This document shows, in pieces, positions 6,106 to 59,386 of a stretch of DNA of 64,000 nucleotides (positions within the stretch are counted from its first letter, which is position 1; every line of letters begins with the position of its first letter). Below the pieces are notes generated by a model. The model was not told the origin of the DNA and searched no databases. It saw nothing but the letters and a program-made list of their open reading frames with translations. The DNA is from a virus (lineage: Duplodnaviria; Heunggongvirae; Uroviricota; Caudoviricetes). The position numbers were made by a program, and so were the translations under genes. The stretch is taken from positions 1-64,000 of IMG/VR virus record IMGVR_UViG_3300045988_003641; one strand, 5' to 3'.

Positions 6106-6636
6106 ATGAACAAATTTCAAGCTATCAACTTCATTCGTTCAAATGCTGTAATGTCTAAGCCTGTAAAAGATACATACGAATTCCGTTGTAATGGGGTACA
6201 TTTCGCAACAATCACCAAATCAGAAAACGGGGCTTATTACGTTCATCGTCGTAATGTTTCCACTGTTGTAGTCTCTCACTTTATGCAAGCTGTAGCGGAA
6301 TTATTACCGTTATTCTTAGAGATTTACTTAGATGAGTGTAAAAACGTTCACAACCACGTTAAAAACCTTTTAAACGGTTATAAAATGGCTTATGAACGTT
6401 CTATCAAGTCCTTAAACAAGTTCTATAAAGCCCCTGAAAACTCTGTTGCTTCAGCCTATGGCGTAGGCGGTTGGACTGTTAGTCTCTTCGAAGTGGAAGA
6501 AATCGAGCTTTACGACCATCGACCTAACGGTTACTCTAAGACTCTCGGTGAAGGTTTAACGTTCAATATCAAGAACTTAGAAAAAACTTTAAAAGATATT
6601 GAAAAAGATATTGACGAGACAATAAAAAGTCTGTAA
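6106..6636 (+). CDS. hypothetical early protein
   Basis: ORF 176 aa behind cassette leader. Confidence 0.6.
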   Translation: MNKFQAINFIRSNAVMSKPVKDTYEFRCNGVHFATITKSENGAYYVHRRNVSTVVVSHFMQAVAELLPLFLEIYLDECKNVHNHVKNLLNGYKMAYERSIKSLNKFYKAPENSVASAYGVGGWTVSLFEVEEIELYDHRPNGYSKTLGEGLTFNIKNLEKTLKDIEKDIDETIKSL

Positions 6637-49907: not shown

Positions 49908-50164
49908 TTTGTAAATCCTTTCTTAATGAACCAGTTGATAACACTCTTCACAACTTTACTACGATGGTAGATAAAATGTGGAGAGGGTTGGTATGAACCA
50001 TAAGCCCAGAAAGCGATAATTTCATTACACACTGTGCATCGGGTACTTTCTTCAGCAATATGACCGTTAACTATTTCACTTACCTCACCTTGTAAGTCTG
50101 TACACCCACAATGTGGACAACGGATAGGTGTTCCATCAGACTCATAGCAGTGTTCAATTTTCAT
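49904..50164 (-). CDS. small zinc-ribbon protein
   Basis: CPHCGC...CTVCNE pairs. Confidence 0.5.
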   Translation of the reverse strand: MKIEHCYESDGTPIRCPHCGCTDLQGEVSEIVNGHIAEESTRCTVCNEIIAFWAYGSYQPSPHFIYHRSKVVKSVINWFIKKGFTK

Positions 50165-50680
50165 CTATTTAACCTCAAAAACTGGTTCAAGAACCAATAT
50201 AAAGTCTACACAGTCATCTTCTTCATCCAGAATACCATCAAAGTTCTTAGGTACAAAGTCGAAGAGACTCATAGAATATCGGTCAGAAGTAACCCTGATA
50301 GTGTTCCCTAGATTCTCTACAGTTAATATTGTACGGCTTTCTGTTACCTCACTTAGAAGATTACTCACAAAGTCATCTAAGAAGTGTTTCATCAGTGACT
50401 TGAAGCCTTTAGGGTAATCTGTACCAGAGTATGTTTCAATCTGAGGAACAAGCTTAACATTTATACTAGTCTTTGTTAAGAACGTTTTAGAGAACATGCT
50501 ATCAGGTAGCTTACAAACAGTCTTTCCAGTACCTTCATGTTCAATCTCAACAAAACCAGCTTCGTCGCCACATGTAACTATTTTAAAAGATGCTTCATTC
50601 TCATACTGTGAAGCCATAAACTTTTTAAGCATCTCTTTAAGGAAATCTGCATGAGCATCTTGTAAGTAGACATCAATCAT
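50165..50680 (-). CDS. hypothetical protein
   Basis: ORF 171 aa. Confidence 0.55.
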   Translation of the reverse strand: MIDVYLQDAHADFLKEMLKKFMASQYENEASFKIVTCGDEAGFVEIEHEGTGKTVCKLPDSMFSKTFLTKTSINVKLVPQIETYSGTDYPKGFKSLMKHFLDDFVSNLLSEVTESRTILTVENLGNTIRVTSDRYSMSLFDFVPKNFDGILDEEDDCVDFILVLEPVFEVK

Positions 50681-50693
50681 AGTTAATCACCTA

Positions 50694-51053
50694 TTATGGG
50701 AACAGACACTTAATGTCATCGTTTTTGAAAACGAAACTTGTGTAGTTGTGACCATCAACATCCAACCAAACAGCCTGAACATCTACACCATCAATATTCT
50801 GGTAAAGCTCTTTAATGAAGTGGTCTTTCACAAACTGACTGCTAGTGGTTTCCAGCTTGATGTTTGAGATTGCTGAACCTACAGCCATATAACCCATGAC
50901 ACGTTTCTTCTCAGTATGCTTAATCTTACCATCTTTGTAAGCCATAATGAGATTGGAGAGAATCTTCACACCATAATACTTTTCAAGGTGAGTAGGTACA
51001 CCGTAAAAGCCTAATGCGAAGTTTTCAGAGTGGATAATGTTTTCACGTTTCAT
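50694..51053 (-). CDS. hypothetical protein
   Basis: ORF 119 aa. Confidence 0.55.
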   Translation of the reverse strand: MKRENIIHSENFALGFYGVPTHLEKYYGVKILSNLIMAYKDGKIKHTEKKRVMGYMAVGSAISNIKLETTSSQFVKDHFIKELYQNIDGVDVQAVWLDVDGHNYTSFVFKNDDIKCLFP

Positions 51054-51054
51054 A

Positions 51055-51384
51055 TTAATCTGCCAACCTTAAATTAAAATTAACACCAAATTTTTCACAT
51101 ACTTCCAACATATACTCAAGGGAGACATTACCAGTGAGATGAATTATGTTGGACACACGAGCCTGAGAGATACCACAAATTTTAGCAACTTGCTCTTGAG
51201 AAAGACCTCTGGATTTAATCTCTCTCTTAAAACGATGTGCAACGAAGTCTCTCATTTCGTCTACATCCATTGGACAAATATAACTCTCCATTTCAGCCTC
51301 TCTATCAGCCTCCCAATCATCTTGTGGGGCATAAGGGTCAAAAACCTCATTCATCTTTCTTCTTCCGTTTGCGTGAAGTATCAA
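51055..51384 (-). CDS. helix-turn-helix DNA-binding protein (XRE-like)
   Basis: LSQEQVAKICGISQARVSNI HTH segment; alternative start 51354. Confidence 0.65.
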   Translation of the reverse strand: MILHANGRRKMNEVFDPYAPQDDWEADREAEMESYICPMDVDEMRDFVAHRFKREIKSRGLSQEQVAKICGISQARVSNIIHLTGNVSLEYMLEVCEKFGVNFNLRLAD

Positions 51385-51559
51385 TTAATGAGTCTATGTT
51401 AGTAGCCCTGACCTTTTCACGTTCATCGTTAAGATAATCATCAAGAGCCTTTTCAATCTGTGAATCATCTTGACAGATAACTGTAAAGACTGTAAAGCCG
51501 TCTGTATCGTCAATTATCTTACCATAACCGCTTCTGGGATGTAACTTTTTAAGAGCCAT
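51347..51559 (-). CDS. hypothetical protein
   Basis: ORF 70 aa. Confidence 0.4.
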   Translation of the reverse strand: MALKKLHPRSGYGKIIDDTDGFTVFTVICQDDSQIEKALDDYLNDEREKVRATNIDSLIDTSRKRKKKDE

Positions 51560-51560
51560 A

Positions 51561-51944
51561 TCAAATACCTGTGCAGCTTCTGTTTTCTAAGAAATACTCA
51601 ACACCATACATAGCTTTTTGCATCAAATCTTCTTTAAACTGAATACGATGATTAAGCATAGCCTGTACATCAATATCATCATGGTGCTTCTCTTTAATAT
51701 TTGCAGATTGCAGGAAATACTCTGCAAGAACACGATACTGATAGTCAGTTACCTTGTCAGTCATCTCTGTTAAAGACTCTTCAGAGATTGGTTTAAGTAA
51801 CTCACCATTAGCCAAAGCAACACCTTTAACAATCTGACAAGTGTCTTCTGGAACACCTGATAAGTCCACATTTGGAAGTTCTGTTGCATTGACTGGTAAA
51901 TTCATTGCCATAACCATTGCAGCAGCTAATAAAATCTTTTTCAT
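51561..51944 (-). CDS. secreted/periplasmic protein with signal peptide
   Basis: N-terminus MKKILLAAAMVMAMNLPVNA. Confidence 0.55.
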   Translation of the reverse strand: MKKILLAAAMVMAMNLPVNATELPNVDLSGVPEDTCQIVKGVALANGELLKPISEESLTEMTDKVTDYQYRVLAEYFLQSANIKEKHHDDIDVQAMLNHRIQFKEDLMQKAMYGVEYFLENRSCTGI

Positions 51945-51999
51945 AATGACCTCAAAGTTATATTGAATTTTGTATTACATTGAGTATAAAAATAAGCTA

Positions 52000-52430
52000 T
52001 AACACCTGACTTGTCAACAGACTTTATAGCTTATTTGGCAGATTTTTTATAAGGCTACTGCCATCCTTCCATACCACACCTCACCCAACCATACCATGCC
52101 TTACCAGACCGCACCTTGCCTCATTAAAAGACCCTCTTAAAAGACCTTTTAAAAAGGTAAGTCTCATTTTAATGTAGCTGAGACTAACTACCCGCACCGA
52201 ACCTCACCTGACCTGACCGCGCCATACCTAACCGCGCCTTACCACACCTCACTTAAAAACCCTATGAGATACTCTATCGAATATAATTTAAAGACTCTTA
52301 AGTGATGTAATCGAATTTTTATGTAGCTCCGATTAACTACCCGCACTTTACCAAACCTCACCCTACCCTACCAGACCTTACCTAACCGCGCCGTACCTCA
52401 TTAAAAGACCCTCTTAAAGACCTTTTAAAA
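52000..52430. repeat. intergenic repeat modules: CA-rich ACC(N) tracts flanking conserved palindromic core
   Basis: Core ACCTTTTAAAAAGGTAAGTCTCATTTTAATGTAGCTGAGACTAACTACCC at 52140-52192; variant 52320-52345; similar modules at 53575-53890. Confidence 0.65.
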
Positions 52431-52449
52431 AGGAGCCTCCGAAGAGGCT
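52421..52449 (-). terminator. rho-independent terminator (minus strand)
   Basis: AGCCTC-ttcg-GAGGCT hairpin followed by TTTTT on minus strand. Confidence 0.55.
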
Positions 52450-52460
52450 ACCTAGTCAAC

Positions 52461-52901
52461 TTAGAAAGGTTTTCTACGTTGCTTGTTAATGTTAGCTTTC
52501 ATAGCAGCTAAATGGTTTTGCTGTTCAATTAGTCGTGAACGTTCTTGATGGCTAAGTACCATAGTGTTCACATTCTCAATCGCTTGAGTGGCTTGCTTTA
52601 AAGCACGACCAATCTTACCAGACATTTTACGTTTTGCAATAGTTGCTTGATGCTTAGGTTCAACCACACGATAACCAACACCCATTGAAGCAACCAGATA
52701 AATCTTCTCTTCTTTAAGAAGCTTCTCAATAAACTTCTCAAGTCGATTTAAGCGTGTAAGTGCGTAAGCTTTCATTTCATCTTCGTACTTAACAATGTCA
52801 CCTTGATAAGTTGGCTTCACAATACCTAAGAAGGTATCCATCTCAGAGTGTGATACAGTGTCACCGTAACTAAACTTTGCTGCTAATGCTTTTGTATTCA
52901 T
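52461..52901 (-). CDS. hypothetical protein
   Basis: ORF 146 aa. Confidence 0.55.
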   Translation of the reverse strand: MNTKALAAKFSYGDTVSHSEMDTFLGIVKPTYQGDIVKYEDEMKAYALTRLNRLEKFIEKLLKEEKIYLVASMGVGYRVVEPKHQATIAKRKMSGKIGRALKQATQAIENVNTMVLSHQERSRLIEQQNHLAAMKANINKQRRKPF

Positions 52902-52903
52902 AA

Positions 52904-53509
<606 letters not shown>

Positions 53510-53574
53510 TTAGTTGATTGTTAAGTTGTTTGTAAAGAACCCTCAACAGAAGACTCTTTAGAAACTTGGTAGAT

Positions 53575-53890
53575 TTTTAACGTGGATACTACCATCCACC
53601 CATACCGTGCCACACCACACCGGACCGTACCATGCCCAACCCTACTACACCAGACCTTATTAAAAGACCCTCTCCAAAGACCTTTTAAAAAGGTAAGTCT
53701 CATTTTAATGTAGCTGAGACTAACTACCCATACATTACCGCACCATATTATACCCTACCCCACCATACTTCACTGCACCGAGCCACGCATTACATCACTT
53801 AAAAAACCTTTTCAAAGACTCTTAAGTGATGCTGGTGAGTACCCGTTGGTTTATGCTGCTCAGTATACTCACCAAATTTTCTATGTCAAC
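53575..53890. repeat. second copy of CA-rich / palindromic-core intergenic module
   Basis: Shares GACCTTTTAAAAAGGTAAGTCTCATTTTAATGTAGCTGAGACTAACTACCC with 52140-52192. Confidence 0.65.
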
Positions 53891-53895
53891 AACTT

Positions 53896-55032
53896 TTATT
53901 CGTAGTCTCGAATAACGAGACCAACAGGGAACTGTAAAGAACCCTTACGAGTCATCTTCTGGAACTGAACCGTTAAAGGTTTCCCGATAAACTCTTCAGG
54001 ATGCTCAGCAAGATACTGTTTCTTCTCGTGTGTAGTTTTCCATGAAACATCTACAAAGACGTTAGGAAGAGTCTCTACAACGAACTTACCATGACCACGC
54101 TTATCAGTCTTTACACCAGTCACTTTAAACTCTTCAGTGTGCATCTTCTTGTGCTTAATCAAGAAGTATGAACGGTGACCACACTCATAGAAAGATTCTT
54201 CAGAGATTGAACGGTACATTGCACCTTCAAACTTAGCTTCAACCCACTTATCATGAGCTTCATCAAACTCTTCCCAAGAATTTACACGGATAGTCTGTAC
54301 AGGAACAACTCTACAGGTATCCCCAAGCTCAACAATAGGTGAGTTATCAATAACTTCACGACGCTCAGGCCAAGATTTTGAATTGTCACAGATATCATAC
54401 CAGTAGAATTTAAGAAGGTGACGGTCTGGATTGTCAGCATTCTTAATCATAGATACAATATCTTCTAAGTCCCAACCATGAGCATAAATCTCTCCGTCAA
54501 AGTCTTCAACTTGCGGATGTAATTTAAGCAACAAAAGCAAATCTGGGATTAGTTCTGTTGGAACGTTGTAAACAGTATTCTCACGAGAATAAGCTGTGAA
54601 ACTGACTGAATCAGCATCTCTTGAGATTCTACAACGTACACCATCAAGTTTTGGTTGAGCATCAGCAGGGAACTTCAGATACTTTGCATGACTAACCTTT
54701 GCAGCATCATGAGCAAGCTGTACACCTACCTTCTCAGTATTCTGTGCAGACTCTTTTGTGTAAGCATAACCTTTACGGTCAACTTGCTTTTTATACTTAG
54801 CAGCAACTTCAAAGAGAGCTTGCTGTTCAGCGTTACGCTCATTCTTTTTACCGATGTTCTTAGGCTCTGCTGTATACTCTTCAAACATCATCTTGCCATT
54901 CTCTTTACCATAGGTTGTAATAACTTTGTCACCTACAGCAACACATGACCAGACGTTGAAGGAACCATCTTTATTTTGTTTGTACAGAATTGTCATTTTT
55001 AACCTCTGAGTGATACCAAGTATTGCAAGCAT
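53896..55032 (-). CDS. ATP-dependent DNA ligase
   Basis: KxDG adenylation motif PKLDGVRCRI; 378 aa. Confidence 0.8.
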   Translation of the reverse strand: MLAILGITQRLKMTILYKQNKDGSFNVWSCVAVGDKVITTYGKENGKMMFEEYTAEPKNIGKKNERNAEQQALFEVAAKYKKQVDRKGYAYTKESAQNTEKVGVQLAHDAAKVSHAKYLKFPADAQPKLDGVRCRISRDADSVSFTAYSRENTVYNVPTELIPDLLLLLKLHPQVEDFDGEIYAHGWDLEDIVSMIKNADNPDRHLLKFYWYDICDNSKSWPERREVIDNSPIVELGDTCRVVPVQTIRVNSWEEFDEAHDKWVEAKFEGAMYRSISEESFYECGHRSYFLIKHKKMHTEEFKVTGVKTDKRGHGKFVVETLPNVFVDVSWKTTHEKKQYLAEHPEEFIGKPLTVQFQKMTRKGSLQFPVGLVIRDYE

Positions 55033-55189
55033 TACATGCGTAAAGCTCTAAGTCATTTTTATCTGGTTTGTGGAAACAGTTTGACCCACAACGACACCGG
55101 AATAGCTTACCATCAACACGAAGAATGAATGTTTCAAGCTCACCATCTTCTGTAAGAACTGCGTTCTTAAATTTATCTTCTACAGTCAT
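54971..55189 (-). CDS. small Cys-rich protein
   Basis: CRCGSNC...CNACN. Confidence 0.45.
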   Translation of the reverse strand: MTVEDKFKNAVLTEDGELETFILRVDGKLFRCRCGSNCFHKPDKNDLELYACNACNTWYHSEVKNDNSVQTK

Positions 55190-55392
55190 TTTCTCTTACC
55201 ACCAATCTCTACGTCGATAACTTGAACATCGCCAGCAACATCAAACTTATGAATGATGCTTTCCACAGTGTAAGTCCAACCCTCAATGCGAACCAACTCA
55301 CCTTCTCGTGGGACGATTGGATTACGTTGAGCTACGGTTGTAGTGGAGTGAACAACATCATAACAATAGATGTAGTTTACTAAGACTTCCAT
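55186..55392 (-). CDS. hypothetical protein
   Basis: Track ORF extends to 55491 and overlaps upstream gene by 89 nt; internal ATG with GAGGT RBS chosen. Confidence 0.4.
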   Translation of the reverse strand: MEVLVNYIYCYDVVHSTTTVAQRNPIVPREGELVRIEGWTYTVESIIHKFDVAGDVQVIDVEIGGKRK

Positions 55393-55402
55393 CGTGAAAA
55401 CC

Positions 55403-55672
55403 TCACTCAATAACCGTAGTGTGTGATTGACCATTTTTGCCATAGCTATAAGATGTTGTTGTTTGGGAGTTTGGACATCTGACAACAACAATATCTCTGC
55501 TTATAGCATCACCATGTAACTTGTATACTCTGCAATCTTGCATCTCTGGTGGGAGACTGTAAGAAGCATTTTTATCTTCATAAGAAGGGTTGCAGCCAGA
55601 TAGAAAAACAACACCAAGCGCAATTACTGCTTTCCACATAATACTTCCCCAGAGACTGTACATTTTCTTCAT
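55403..55672 (-). CDS. small lipoprotein (lipobox LSGC)
   Basis: N-terminal signal peptide ending VVFLSGC. Confidence 0.55.
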   Translation of the reverse strand: MKKMYSLWGSIMWKAVIALGVVFLSGCNPSYEDKNASYSLPPEMQDCRVYKLHGDAISRDIVVVRCPNSQTTTSYSYGKNGQSHTTVIE

Positions 55673-55902
55673 AGCAACTCCAGAATATCAATACGTTCAC
55701 CTTTGAGTACTCCAGTACGGTCTTTTGCAATCTTACCGTCAACAATAAGAATGTGTGCAGACCTTAAAGTGTCGCTGTTAAAGGCTTTTACGAACTTGCT
55801 AGGCATCACTACAATACACATCTCCTGAATCAACTCTGGAGTATAGCAATTGTCGTGAAGTTGCTGAATAACGTCTGCAAGTGTCATTTTTGATGTCTCC
55901 AA
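55669..55902 (-). CDS. hypothetical protein
   Basis: ORF 77 aa. Confidence 0.45.
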   Translation of the reverse strand: METSKMTLADVIQQLHDNCYTPELIQEMCIVVMPSKFVKAFNSDTLRSAHILIVDGKIAKDRTGVLKGERIDILELL

Positions 55903-56093
55903 TATTCAATATCTACAAGTTCTTGTGCAATGCTTTTAAGGTTACTTTTGAGGAAAACTTTCTCACCACCAGACAGGGAAGTGTTATCAATGAGTCTATT
56001 CATTCTCTCAAACAACTTCTGCTTACGGTTCTTGATAGTTTCCTTTGAAGCACCTTTCATCATCGCTGCATGGGTTCTTCCACGGTGACTCAT
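55884..56093 (-). CDS. hypothetical protein
   Basis: ORF 69 aa. Confidence 0.4.
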   Translation of the reverse strand: MSHRGRTHAAMMKGASKETIKNRKQKLFERMNRLIDNTSLSGGEKVFLKSNLKSIAQELVDIEYWRHQK

Positions 56094-56144
56094 AAGCCCT
56101 CCTATATAAGATATAGTATAAGGTACTCTTCCATGAGCACCTTG

Positions 56145-56660
56145 TCAACTTAGTTTTGCAAACTCTCCGTGGAGTTTTACAGCAGCTTCACAGTAAGCTT
56201 TATGGGCTTCTTCTTCCGTTGTGTATGTTCCTATATGTATAGTCTTACCATTATGGTTAATCTGGGCTACCCACTTACCAGACTTGCTTCTACTTGTGCC
56301 TTTTAAGTTTTTTGATGTTCTAGGTTGTCTCCTATTAGACATGTTCTGTTCTTTTGTGGCCTCTCTTAAATTGTTCCAAGCGTTATTCAAGCCATCTCCA
56401 TCTTTGTGGTCAATGTGTTTATCAGGCCACTTGCCTGTCATCCAGAACCAAGCAATTCGGTGATTACCTGTCCTGTATCCTAAAATCTGTGTGTGCATAT
56501 ACACACCAGACCTTGTGCGCTTAATTGCTCCGGCTTGGCTTCCAATAACCACCCTACTACTATGTGGAGGTCTACCAATCCATGTTAAGACCCCTGTTTC
56601 GGGGTCATAATCTAACCAAGACTTTAACTGTTCATGTGTGAATCCACAATCTCTCATCAA
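56145..56660 (-). CDS. HNH homing endonuclease with AP2-like DNA-binding domain
   Basis: HIDHKDGDGLNNAWNNL HNH core; C-terminal GKWVAQINHNGKTIHIGTYTTEEEAHKAY. Confidence 0.75.
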   Translation of the reverse strand: MMRDCGFTHEQLKSWLDYDPETGVLTWIGRPPHSSRVVIGSQAGAIKRTRSGVYMHTQILGYRTGNHRIAWFWMTGKWPDKHIDHKDGDGLNNAWNNLREATKEQNMSNRRQPRTSKNLKGTSRSKSGKWVAQINHNGKTIHIGTYTTEEEAHKAYCEAAVKLHGEFAKLS

Positions 56661-59386
56661 TGTACCTCATACCAGCTCTTACCAACCTTACCTGTGCCAG
56701 TTACAAGCGTCTCACTCTTCAAACCTAAATTCTTAGATGCCTGACCATACATCCAGTCAGTTATGGCTTTAACTTCTTGAGTCATACTTTCTGGGCATTC
56801 CCAACTGTTTTCATCGTGGTATGCCAGCAAAAGCCTAGCACCGATTGCTGGTTTTCGTCCATTTAATTTTGTCAATCCTTCTTCACATGCTCTTCTACAA
56901 GCAAGATTAATTGCCTCATTTTGAATCTGAGCCTCTGAACCCATGAGCAAATAATTCAATAACTTATGTGGAGATTTACACCACAACCAAGCTCCAGCAA
57001 CCTTTACAAAACCACCTTTAGAGATTGCAGCAGTCTTACCAAATACCTCTTCAAGTGCCTTTTTAGTTGCTTTGTAGTCAGCTTCCAAGTCATCTAGCAG
57101 CTTTTTAATTTTAGGCAAACGAATAAAGTAAGTCTGTTTAGTCAGCGCACCTTCCTGAGTAGTTGCAGCTTTAATCGTCTTAGCAAACTTCTCATCACCT
57201 GCACCGAACAGCAGTGCATAGATACCATTCTTAGCTTTCTTACGACCCTTGCTAATCTCATGAAGAAGATTCTCATCCTGAGTAGCTCGACAAGTCAAGA
57301 TGTCCTGCTCATCGTTCAAGTTAAAGTAAATACTGTTCAGTGTATGTGCATCAGTCCCTGAATAGACAACGTACAGGTCATTCTCAGAGTCATAGCGAAG
57401 GTACTTATCAATCTCTGGGTTGAGGTACTCATCAAAGTGTTTACAGTAATAGCGTCCATCTTCTTGACGAATGAACTCAATTTCTTCTTTACCTTGCGTT
57501 ACCGCTTTGGTGAAGTCTTTATCACCCATAAAGTTACAAAGAAGAACTAGCTGGGCTGAGTTCATGTCTACAGAGACAACGTTAGTACCTTCCTCACAAA
57601 TCCACACTGCCCTCATTGGTTCCCCATAGACAGCAGCACCAGACGGTACGTTTACAATACCATACTGTGTCATACGTCCAGTTGAAGTACCAAACACCAT
57701 TGCACCAGCACTAAGGCGACCATCAGGACGAATCTGGTTCAACCAACCTTTTTCATCATCCTTTGAGTTCTCAATAGTTCTGCGTCGGTGCATCAAAGTG
57801 TAGTATTTAGCAATCTTCTGTCCAAGCTCACCTTCAATCGTATCGTAAGATGATTCAGTAAGTTTTGGTGAAGTACGGATTAAGCAAGGCTCAAGCAAAT
57901 CTGTGTACTTCTTCACAGACCAGTTATGCTCAATGTACTGGACGCCTTCGTGTTCAACATAACTCAAACCACACCGCTCAACCATTTCCTGCCACTTAGG
58001 ATGCTTTGTAATCATCTTTTTATTGTCTTTGAAACGACAAACTTTGACAGGGCGACCATCAGAGTCTTTCTTGTAGTTCCAGTCATCTGGAATCCAACCA
58101 ACTGATTTCAAGTAGTCTTTAACAACTGCTACCTGAGTCATACGAGAAACTTCAAACTCAATTGGTGTATATGGTGCATCAATCAAACCTGTGTAGCGAC
58201 TTGACTCAAGTTCAAAGTGGTTAACAACGTGGCTGTTATAGTACTTCACAGTTTTGACTGTTTTTACTGGCTTCCAGTCTTTGCATTTCTTACCAATCTT
58301 TGCGTTCAACTCATTGCAAATTGCACGAGCATCCTTCATTGCTACAAAGCCTTCCTTGTACTCTTCACCAGTTACAGAGTTGGTTGGTGTATAGCAATTC
58401 CTTTTTTCAATGTTAAAAATCTTTGTAGTTGGCTTACCAAATGGTTTGATTTCGTATGTCTGCATCTCGCCATTACGTACCTGCTGACGATACTTTGTCT
58501 TAGGGTACTTGGTAATTCTTTTCAGTCCATCTGCATGACCAAATGTTTCAACATACTCATTCCAAGCTTTTGCAAACTCTTCTCCAGTGACTTTACCTTT
58601 GGTCTTAATAGTTGGAGGTAGATGTGGTTCAACCTCTGAAGCAAGCTCATTAGTCAACTTGTCAAGTTCCTTTACATGGAACTCCATAAGCTCTTTATCA
58701 GCTTTCCAACCATTGATAGCTTGTTGACTCATCCAGAAAGATGTTTCTTTAGCTCGCATGTAGGTTTCATAAGTGTCTATGCCACACTTCTTAAGCTTGA
58801 GATACTCATTATCAAGTGCCCGTTTAGTTTTGGCGTTAATACGGATATCTTCTACAACACGAGTGAAGATTTCTGCATTCCACACACCCCAATGTTCAAT
58901 CTCTGGTTTACGAACACCAACACGAGCACCCCATGCAGCCAAGCCATGAGCACCTTTATAACCCTTTGGAGTTGGTCTATCCATCCACTGAACACGAGAC
59001 TGGATAAGAGAATCCTGAAAGAAATTACTCCACGGCTTACACTTTGGATTATCAAAGTTCCATAAATCCGGTGCAATGTGATTGAAAACCCACCAGTCAT
59101 AACCTAGACCATTATGAATGCAAAGACGTTTTGCCTTTAACGCAAACTCAATACCTTCACGTAAGCCACCCTTAATGTACTTGGTATACTTGTGACCGAG
59201 GATAGGCTCATCTGTAAAGACCCATACAGGTGGCTCTTCATCGTCAGATTTATAGTCTGCGAAAGCCATTACGTGCACTTTAGTGAACTCAAGGAGTAAA
59301 CCATCAGTTTCTGTATCACCAACTAAATGTAAGTTTTTAAAATCTACGTTTTCCATTTTTACTCCCTCTAAAATCATTAACCTCAT
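56657..59386 (-). CDS. DNA polymerase, family A, with 3'-5' exonuclease domain
   Basis: Exo I VGDTETDGL; motif A VVSVDMNSAQLV; motif B KNGIYALLFGAG; motif C YHDE; 909 aa. Confidence 0.85.
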   Translation of the reverse strand: MRLMILEGVKMENVDFKNLHLVGDTETDGLLLEFTKVHVMAFADYKSDDEEPPVWVFTDEPILGHKYTKYIKGGLREGIEFALKAKRLCIHNGLGYDWWVFNHIAPDLWNFDNPKCKPWSNFFQDSLIQSRVQWMDRPTPKGYKGAHGLAAWGARVGVRKPEIEHWGVWNAEIFTRVVEDIRINAKTKRALDNEYLKLKKCGIDTYETYMRAKETSFWMSQQAINGWKADKELMEFHVKELDKLTNELASEVEPHLPPTIKTKGKVTGEEFAKAWNEYVETFGHADGLKRITKYPKTKYRQQVRNGEMQTYEIKPFGKPTTKIFNIEKRNCYTPTNSVTGEEYKEGFVAMKDARAICNELNAKIGKKCKDWKPVKTVKTVKYYNSHVVNHFELESSRYTGLIDAPYTPIEFEVSRMTQVAVVKDYLKSVGWIPDDWNYKKDSDGRPVKVCRFKDNKKMITKHPKWQEMVERCGLSYVEHEGVQYIEHNWSVKKYTDLLEPCLIRTSPKLTESSYDTIEGELGQKIAKYYTLMHRRRTIENSKDDEKGWLNQIRPDGRLSAGAMVFGTSTGRMTQYGIVNVPSGAAVYGEPMRAVWICEEGTNVVSVDMNSAQLVLLCNFMGDKDFTKAVTQGKEEIEFIRQEDGRYYCKHFDEYLNPEIDKYLRYDSENDLYVVYSGTDAHTLNSIYFNLNDEQDILTCRATQDENLLHEISKGRKKAKNGIYALLFGAGDEKFAKTIKAATTQEGALTKQTYFIRLPKIKKLLDDLEADYKATKKALEEVFGKTAAISKGGFVKVAGAWLWCKSPHKLLNYLLMGSEAQIQNEAINLACRRACEEGLTKLNGRKPAIGARLLLAYHDENSWECPESMTQEVKAITDWMYGQASKNLGLKSETLVTGTGKVGKSWYEVH

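Follow-up and report, generated by a model that had tools for sequence, protein, structure and literature searches.

Small lipoproteins of phages that infect Gram-negative hosts are mostly o-spanins. To our knowledge, the remaining ones act either in superinfection exclusion (Llp of T5, and Cor) or in serum resistance (Bor of lambda). T4 carries two other small envelope proteins: Spackle (Sp), a soluble periplasmic helical protein, and Imm, an inner-membrane protein. Llp has a single cysteine pair, Cys11-Cys58, and its gene adjoins that of the receptor-binding protein pb5 (PMC9586334). Here we analyze an open reading frame (ORF) for a putative small lipoprotein, at positions 55403-55672 of the minus strand of a 64,000-nucleotide viral sequence (positions 1 to 64,000 of the IMG/VR record IMGVR_UViG_3300045988_003641; this whole stretch is referred to as the window), together with a second ORF for a putative secreted protein (51561-51944, same strand). 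The original prediction had proposed both as candidate superinfection-exclusion factors, on the analogy of T5 Llp. We find that the first ORF is a genuine gene for a predicted lipoprotein precursor, a further member of a catalogued and uncharacterised family (DUF4884/phrog_902), and an ordinary gene for this window. The lipoprotein is thus a real finding; exclusion is put forward as a hypothesis, and the Llp model does not fit it.

A conserved lipoprotein gene

The N-terminus of the predicted precursor, MKKMYSLWGSIMWKAVIALGVVFLSGC followed by NPSY, fits the PROSITE pattern PS00013, with the stretch IALGVVFLSGC, a lipobox cysteine at position 27 and Lys residues (K2/K3) within the first seven positions. 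The pattern comprises a positively charged n-region, an uncharged hydrophobic h-region, a lipobox [LVI][ASTVI][GAS]C and a Cys at position 15-35; for both ORFs, the signal-peptide calls are rule-based checks combined with conservation. The lipobox cysteine is invariant in the homologues, and the signal peptide ending in LSGC that had been proposed for this ORF is upheld. The orthologue in phage Sf17 is annotated with the PROSITE lipoprotein profile PS51257, and an annotated hypothetical protein of phage LMP34 has exactly the same sequence (100% identity).

The pattern by itself is weak evidence, within chance. Two ORFs of at least 60 residues in the window match PS00013, against a mean of 0.53 in mononucleotide shuffles, and 47% of the shuffles had one or more. 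The N-terminus of the second match, ORF 23513-23758 (minus strand, GTG start, MLVRLVVKLFRRTVVSPAATSFSC), is charged and weakly hydrophobic, and this match seems to be accidental, in an alternative frame; ORF 55403-55672 is the sole convincing lipoprotein ORF of the window. The shuffles and the spurious match would suit the notion that ORF 55403-55672 is itself a lipobox-like pattern arisen by chance in a non-coding or alternative frame. We give this next to no credence, since it is refuted by conservation, which is what establishes the gene: there are 1185 related cluster representatives, a cysteine triad is invariant, and the ratio of nonsynonymous to synonymous substitution rates (dN/dS) is 0.08 with dS values of up to 0.7. 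Translational coupling to the upstream gene also speaks against a chance ORF.

Cys27, Cys47 and Cys66 (precursor numbering) were invariant in two alignments, of 66 and of 150 homologues. P41 and P67 were kept in at least 90% of the sequences in both, as were V64 in the smaller alignment and G78 in the larger. The consensus of the DUF4884 family reads C-x(~12)-Y-x-L-P-x-E-L-x-D-C-K-I-Y-x(~12)-VVRCPNS-x-T-x-T-x-Y-x-x-G-K. A strict lipobox was present in 175 of the 209 family proteins collected, and most of the others showed a relaxed lipobox on inspection. The dN/dS of 0.08 was obtained for the mature lipoprotein by pooling nine Ounavirinae loci (against phage FO1a, dN was 0.041 and dS 0.70); for comparison, the value was 0.11 for the neighbouring ligase gene and 0.17-0.31 for several small neighbouring genes. 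These rates indicate that the lipoprotein gene is under strong purifying selection.

An AlphaFold2 (AF2) model of the mature part consists of a five-strand beta domain (strands at mature positions 4-7, 22-27, 35-39, 44-51 and 54-61), with a mean predicted local distance difference test score (pLDDT) of 70 and a predicted template modelling score (pTM) of 0.46. In the model, Cys47 and Cys66 lie at the base of the hairpin formed by strands 22-27 and 35-39, the surface of which is rich in Ser, Thr and Tyr. Because the pair is placed at a hairpin base in a periplasmic protein, a Cys47-Cys66 disulfide is probable.

The start codon admits two readings. Met12 also fits the lipoprotein rule (with Cys16 and K3) and is preceded by GGGGAAG; phages SME50 and DE17 carry a 237-nt coding sequence at this locus with the equivalent start, and some orthologues begin with a GVG-type extension (MNNKVKSCVKAMV...). 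The mature protein of 63 residues is identical from either start.

Family membership and distribution

The lipoprotein matched the PHROG family phrog_902, which is labelled "unknown function" (E=7e-17 for the precursor, 1e-10 for the mature part), and so did all 48 of 48 mature family sequences. In precomputed tables, all homologues bear the label PF16225 (DUF4884). A Pfam-A hmmscan (2025 copy) of the protein and 66 homologues at E<=1 returned no DUF4884 match, only LPAM_1 (lipid attachment site) in 15 members and noise; the name DUF4884 rests on the precomputed labels and was not reproduced by these scans.

A profile search of 1.84 billion protein representatives retrieved 1185 sequences at E<=1e-3 and 631 at E<=1e-10, nearly all of 75-110 residues; the 1185 representatives stand for clusters at 50% identity. 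Using tblastn against GenBank phages, we found the family in 586 records, with hosts including Vibrio, Escherichia, Salmonella, Acinetobacter, Erwinia and Klebsiella. Among the carriers were Felixounavirus, Mooglevirus, Vibrio phages of ~114 kb, Certrevirus (Vequintavirinae) and the jumbo phages Asteriusvirus and Eneladusvirus. Matches in BFVD included proteins of Yersinia, Aeromonas (Aeh1, phiAS5), Vibrio (JSF10) and Acinetobacter (ME3) phages, several of them named "Lipoprotein", and a DUF4884 protein is listed in a T1-like phage (PMC12210894). A scan of IMG/VR yielded almost only Ounavirinae and no new contexts. We found no relative of the VVRCPNSQT subfamily in a scan of 185,579 species genomes, in line with an association of the lipoprotein with virulent phages.

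Searches of NCBIfam and PADLOC gave sub-threshold matches only, those of the lipoprotein homologues being driven by the signal peptide, and sequence searches of PDB (single and profile) returned nothing for the lipoprotein. The gene is already present in ~200 deposited genomes as a "hypothetical protein", and we found no characterisation in the literature on the DUF4884 family, on Felixounavirus lipoproteins or on lipoprotein-based exclusion in lytic phages. Since the family has no assigned function, membership gives no mechanism.

An accessory gene within a replication operon

The window is from a Felixounavirus (Felix O1-like myovirus). Positions 51000-57000 matched 260 phage records at 80-99% identity, nearly all of them Felixounavirus, with Escherichia, Salmonella, Shigella and Citrobacter as hosts. 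On the minus strand, the gene for DNA polymerase is followed by that for an HNH/AP2 homing endonuclease, a cluster of small genes that includes the lipoprotein ORF, and the ATP-dependent DNA ligase gene; beyond the ligase come two genes, ORF 51561-51944, a Cro/CI-type regulator, dihydrofolate reductase (DHFR) and thymidylate synthase (Table 1). Both ORFs do lie among replication genes, as had been noted at the outset, in a co-directional block of DNA polymerase, ligase, DHFR and thymidylate synthase.

Table 1. Features of the lipoprotein locus, the secreted-protein locus and their surroundings in the window.
Feature	Position	Strand	Remarks
Lipoprotein precursor ORF, 89 aa, DUF4884/phrog_902	55403..55672	-	stop codon 55403-55405
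Predicted signal peptide of lipoprotein, residues 1-26	55595..55672	-	
Lipobox L24-S25-G26-C27	55592..55603	-	Cys27 is the predicted lipidated first mature residue
Mature domain of lipoprotein, 63 aa	55406..55594	-	predicted isoelectric point (pI) 6.1; motif VVRCPNSQTTT
Alternative internal start, Met12	55637..55639	-	matches the start of most relatives (MWKAV..., 78 aa)
gp91-derived N-terminal codons	55640-55672	-	compared with L007:4838-5006
Upstream gene, FO1a gp92 homologue, phrog_4230	55669..55887	-	cytoplasmic, no transmembrane segment
Downstream gene, FO1a gp89 homologue, 68 aa, phrog_4427	55186..55392	-	begins 10 nt past the lipoprotein stop
DNA polymerase	56657-59386	-	
HNH/AP2 homing endonuclease	56145-56660	-	between DNA polymerase and small-gene cluster
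ATP-dependent DNA ligase	53896-55032	-	
Predicted secreted (periplasmic) protein precursor, 127 aa, FO1a gp86 homologue, phrog_4332	51561..51944	-	
Predicted signal peptide of secreted protein, residues 1-20	51885-51944	-	
Sigma-70-like promoter match TTGACA-17-TATTTT, 10/12	51989..52017	-	45 nt upstream of the secreted-protein gene; consensus only
Terminator-like hairpin and T-run	52434..52449	-	after the preceding gene 52461-52901; consensus match only

The stop codon of the upstream gp92 homologue overlaps the ATG of the lipoprotein gene (ATGA), and this ATG is preceded, at a distance of 6-9 nt, by a GGAG. In FO1a, Mushroom and Andreotti, a gene for a product of 48 residues (gp91) is found between gp92 and the lipoprotein gene. 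DNA alignment with FO1a and LMP34 revealed that gp91 has been deleted in the window, as it has in LMP34, leaving its first ten codons (MKKMYSLWGS) joined to the lipoprotein ORF; this accounts for the longer N-terminus here than in most orthologues. The genus thus displays three configurations: gp92-gp91-lipoprotein-gp89, gp92-fused lipoprotein-gp89, and gp92-gp89. The last was found in phiWec172 and SEP1, in which 9 nt separate the gp92 homologue from the gp89 homologue downstream, both gp91 and the lipoprotein gene being precisely absent; coverage patterns indicate the same arrangement in ESCO45, REP10, fKMPT1 and D1-2. Two metagenomic copies of the lipoprotein gene (P0012 and P0013) are frameshifted. 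Within the genus, the gene is by these comparisons accessory and dispensable. In Andreotti, the gene is intact, with a GTG start, but lacks annotation (L001 ~6150-6310, minus strand of the locus), so that the gap there is one of annotation and not a gene loss.

In seven diverse phage contexts, the gene was always found among small early-type genes, and an all-against-all BLAST of the flanking proteins of these contexts revealed no recurring neighbour. The gene organization is that of a stand-alone accessory cassette inside the replication-gene operon.

Other small genes around the locus showed the following features. The match of the gp89 homologue to phrog_4427 covers residues 34-101 of a longer ORF at that locus. 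ORF 54971-55189 (minus strand, 72 residues, phrog_5768), which overlaps the start of the ligase gene, is Cys-rich (CRCGSNC...CNACN) and zinc-ribbon-like; it is named "DNA ligase" in some records and had a tblastn match in only six of nine compared loci. The HNH/AP2 endonuclease gene is found at the same position in Andreotti, FO1a, Mushroom and LMP34 and is absent there in SME50, DE17 and Sf17; it is a mobile insertion.

The genomic location also bears on a possible role in lysis, in which the lipoprotein would be an Rz1-like o-spanin subunit or a regulator of lysis timing. Its small size and predicted sorting to the outer membrane would suit such a role, as would the general prevalence of o-spanins among small lipoproteins of this kind of phage. 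Nevertheless, we consider a role in lysis highly unlikely. The genus has its own i-spanin/o-spanin pair elsewhere: in the carefully annotated phage Mushroom, it is the overlapping pair CPT_Mushroom123/124 near rIIB, and separate spanin genes were reported in a Felixounavirus genome paper (PMC12210895). The genes flanking the lipoprotein gene encode small soluble proteins and no membrane-spanning partner, the locus lies among replication genes and far from holin and endolysin, the model predicts a folded beta domain with a disulfide clamp for the mature part, not an extended Pro-rich chain, and the gene is absent from viable lytic isolates. A role in lysis is largely refuted by these observations.

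Comparison with T5 Llp

We translated T5 Llp from the T5 record and compared it with the lipoprotein family. The first profile comparison, using hhalign, gave an 85% probability, with an alignment made up of the signal peptide and nine further residues. This similarity was a signal-peptide artefact: once the signal peptides were trimmed, the hhalign probability dropped to 1.1% and the hidden Markov model (HMM) score was 3 bits. T5 Llp matches phrog_1119, "Cor superinfection exclusion protein", at 1e-19, while none of the 48 mature DUF4884 family sequences matched phrog_1119 at E<=1. We also found no fold match of the lipoprotein model to any PDB entry, including the FhuA-Llp complex.

The genomic settings differ as well. 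In the T5 record, llp is directly beside the receptor-binding gene oad/pb5, whereas the lipoprotein gene is between DNA polymerase and ligase, unpaired, with the tail-fibre genes beyond thymidylate synthase, ~7 kb away. The mature Llp was detectable in 34 records only, all at least 90% identical and confined to near-identical T5 relatives, a narrow range that is expected of a receptor-specific binder; the DUF4884 family, in contrast, crosses hosts and receptors under purifying selection. Finally, Felix O1-type phages are reported to target lipopolysaccharide (LPS) and not protein receptors (PMC8594841).

A lytic conversion of the Llp/Cor type, in which the lipoprotein, from the periplasmic side, would occupy the outer-membrane receptor of its own phage and so block superinfection and the loss of progeny on debris, has some points to commend it. 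The mature proteins are alike in size (63 residues, against 62 in Llp) and each has a cysteine pair; the operon is likely expressed before the late genes; there is one short resemblance (PKDIKCEAYYM in Llp to LP.EL.DCKIY.M); and one jumbo-phage member weakly matches phrog_1119 (E=0.008, signal peptide included). Set against the vanished similarity, the missing fold and sequence matches in PDB, the gene order, the dependence on LPS and the breadth of the family, these points leave such a conversion improbable. On the sequence comparisons, we reject membership of the lipoprotein in the Llp/Cor family, and a mechanism that plugs the phage's own receptor is unlikely. The T5 Llp analogy drawn in the original prediction, therefore, is not sustained.

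Proposed function of the lipoprotein

The precursor would pass through the Sec pathway, receive its lipid on Cys27 and be cut by signal peptidase II, which would leave the mature lipoprotein tethered to the periplasmic face of a membrane. According to the +2 rule of lipoprotein sorting in enterobacteria, Asn at this position directs Lol-dependent transfer to the outer membrane. Since the residue here is Asn and not Asp, the Felixounavirus lipoprotein is probably located on the inner leaflet of the outer membrane. Across the family, residue +2 was Asp in 57 proteins, Glu in 26, Asn in 21, Ser in 21 and Thr in 18; Asp was found in many homologues from E. coli, Erwinia and Enterobacter phages, so that the anchoring membrane may not be critical. 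The small beta domain, clamped by the putative Cys47-Cys66 disulfide, would then bind a component of the envelope that is conserved, and not a receptor specific to one phage. A conserved target is likely because the domain is kept across unrelated receptors and hosts, has no partner gene and shows no linkage to tail fibres. The benefit would be protection of the envelope of the infected cell, either by excluding secondary phage genomes or by preventing lysis from without.

By analogy with other phage envelope proteins, a superinfection-exclusion role is plausible, and we tentatively assign a probability of roughly 0.4 to the proposal that the lipoprotein protects the infected cell through exclusion of secondary genome entry or prevention of lysis from without. 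Several points weigh against it. The choice of protection follows mainly the example set by other envelope proteins of phages. With a variable +2 residue, sorting may differ between members, which is awkward for a single membrane-specific target. The family has a cellular member, BT_3183 of Bacteroides thetaiotaomicron (PMC8931616), and the domain is therefore not intrinsically a phage-exclusion device. The natural loss of the gene means that any benefit is conditional. Lastly, the fold model is only moderately confident, which makes the missing fold matches weak negative evidence.

The breadth across hosts and the strong purifying selection would also suit a role in host takeover without exclusion. 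In such a role, the lipoprotein, tethered to a membrane in the periplasm, would inhibit or modulate some conserved enzyme or machine of the host envelope (candidates being a peptidoglycan hydrolase, a periplasmic nuclease or protease, the envelope-stress sensors, and Lol, Lpt, Bam or Tol-Pal), and would serve to stabilise the envelope or to optimise infection. The stand-alone gene in early-type clusters and the Ser/Thr/Tyr-rich surface of the modelled hairpin are compatible with it. On the other side, no similarity to known families of periplasmic inhibitors emerged from Pfam, NCBIfam, PADLOC or PDB, and natural isolates can do without the gene; we regard host takeover as the nearest rival to protection, somewhat less likely than the latter.

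A wider pattern is also conceivable, in which DUF4884 lipoproteins, small and clamped by a disulfide, are widespread, receptor-independent envelope factors that virulent phages of many Gram-negative hosts direct against one conserved periplasmic or membrane target. This is a rather unlikely generalization. If it is true, the family would exclude superinfecting phages or take over the host by a mechanism of a new kind, unlike those of Llp/Cor, Imm and Spackle, and its target could be a machine of the host envelope or a step that every incoming phage needs for genome entry. Action on a conserved envelope target would also give lytic phages a common means of remodelling or guarding the envelope of Gram-negative cells. 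Genera that carry the family include some that are used, or have been proposed, in phage therapy and biocontrol (Felix O1-like, T5-like, rV5-like, T1-like and jumbo phages), and if one phage does exclude another by this means, the DUF4884 lipoprotein could affect the compatibility of phages in cocktails. Given natural isolates with and without the gene, and its size, the family as a whole is a reasonable experimental target and the question is directly testable.

The secreted protein and its flanking sequence

The second ORF encodes a protein with the N-terminus MKKILLAAAMVMAMNLPVNA, followed by TELP after the predicted cleavage site. It has a positive n-region, a hydrophobic core of 11 residues and V-x-A at -3/-1; the rule-based layout is MKK, ILLAAAMVMAM and NLPVNA, with T as the first mature residue. 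The Mooglevirus homologue, Michonne gp048, is 34% identical and keeps both a signal peptide (ending in SFSAAA, before MK) and the two cysteines. The classical cleavable signal peptide predicted for this ORF is thus corroborated, by the site between VNA and TE and by its retention in the Michonne homologue. The mature part has 107 residues, is acidic (pI 4.6) and contains two conserved Cys; the protein is predicted to be Sec-exported, periplasmic and capable of forming a disulfide.

We found the gene in 259 phage records, all of Ounavirinae type (215 at 90% identity or more), and the protein in four clusters of a set of 5.8 billion proteins. Among close relatives, dN was 0.003-0.007 and dS 0.11-0.24. 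Outside Ounavirinae, there was no hit in Pfam, NCBIfam or PADLOC and only noise in PDB. As judged from this distribution, the secreted protein is encoded by a core gene confined to Ounavirinae. Two records with near-identical Felixounavirus sequence and 99% identity to the secreted protein bear the names of unrelated hosts (MG065668.1, "Campylobacter phage A126", and one "Staphylococcus" record); mislabelling or contamination of these entries is the probable cause.

No functional link was found between the secreted protein and the lipoprotein, the one being core and the other accessory, with their genes 3.5 kb apart. The two genes are probably in separate transcription units. The terminator-like hairpin after the preceding gene suggests that the secreted-protein gene begins a new unit; sigma-70-like matches in this region, such as the one upstream of the gene, were not above shuffle expectation. 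A second strong sigma-70-like site (53889..53862, 11/12) is located in the intergenic region 53507-53895. This region and the intergenic region 51945-52460, which lie on either side of a block of two genes (52461-53506), have in common GGT-rich direct repeats 107-140 nt long, one unit of which is present four times; Andreotti has a "repeat_region" annotated at this site. An Rfam search of positions 50000-57000 gave no hit. One possibility is that the repeats are arrays with a promoter or regulatory role; another is that they are origin-like iterons.

Comparison with known systems

Within DUF4884/phrog_902, the lipoprotein shares with the other members the lipobox Cys, the two other invariant Cys and the VVRCPNS.T motif, with no structural difference; the N-terminal 11 residues, derived from the deletion-fusion, are peculiar to this sub-lineage.

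Rz1-type o-spanins are likewise small phage lipoproteins with a signal peptidase II (SPII) signal, from which the lipoprotein differs in being unpaired and predicted to be folded. The plasmid entry-exclusion lipoproteins TrbK/EexN are also small (~60-70 residues) and block incoming DNA. Two family members matched them in NCBIfam (E=0.02-0.05), with matches that covered approximately the signal peptide only (residues ~4-40) and were far below the curated cut-offs; we take them as no evidence of relationship.

T5 Llp and Cor (T1/phi80/N15) resemble the lipoprotein as small lipoproteins of virulent phages with one cysteine pair and a mature part of almost the same length, and as periplasmic, membrane-tethered products likely made before the late genes. 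They differ in that the family described here is recognisable across phages of many genera, hosts and receptors, and in that a Felix O1-type phage uses LPS and not a TonB-dependent transporter.

T4 Spackle and Imm are small exported early proteins that block a generic step of secondary infection (the activity of the tail lysozyme or DNA entry) and not a receptor. Neither is a lipoprotein, and no search revealed homology of either to the lipoprotein. In function, they are nonetheless the analogy that we prefer: like them, the lipoprotein may act on a step that is common to incoming phages.

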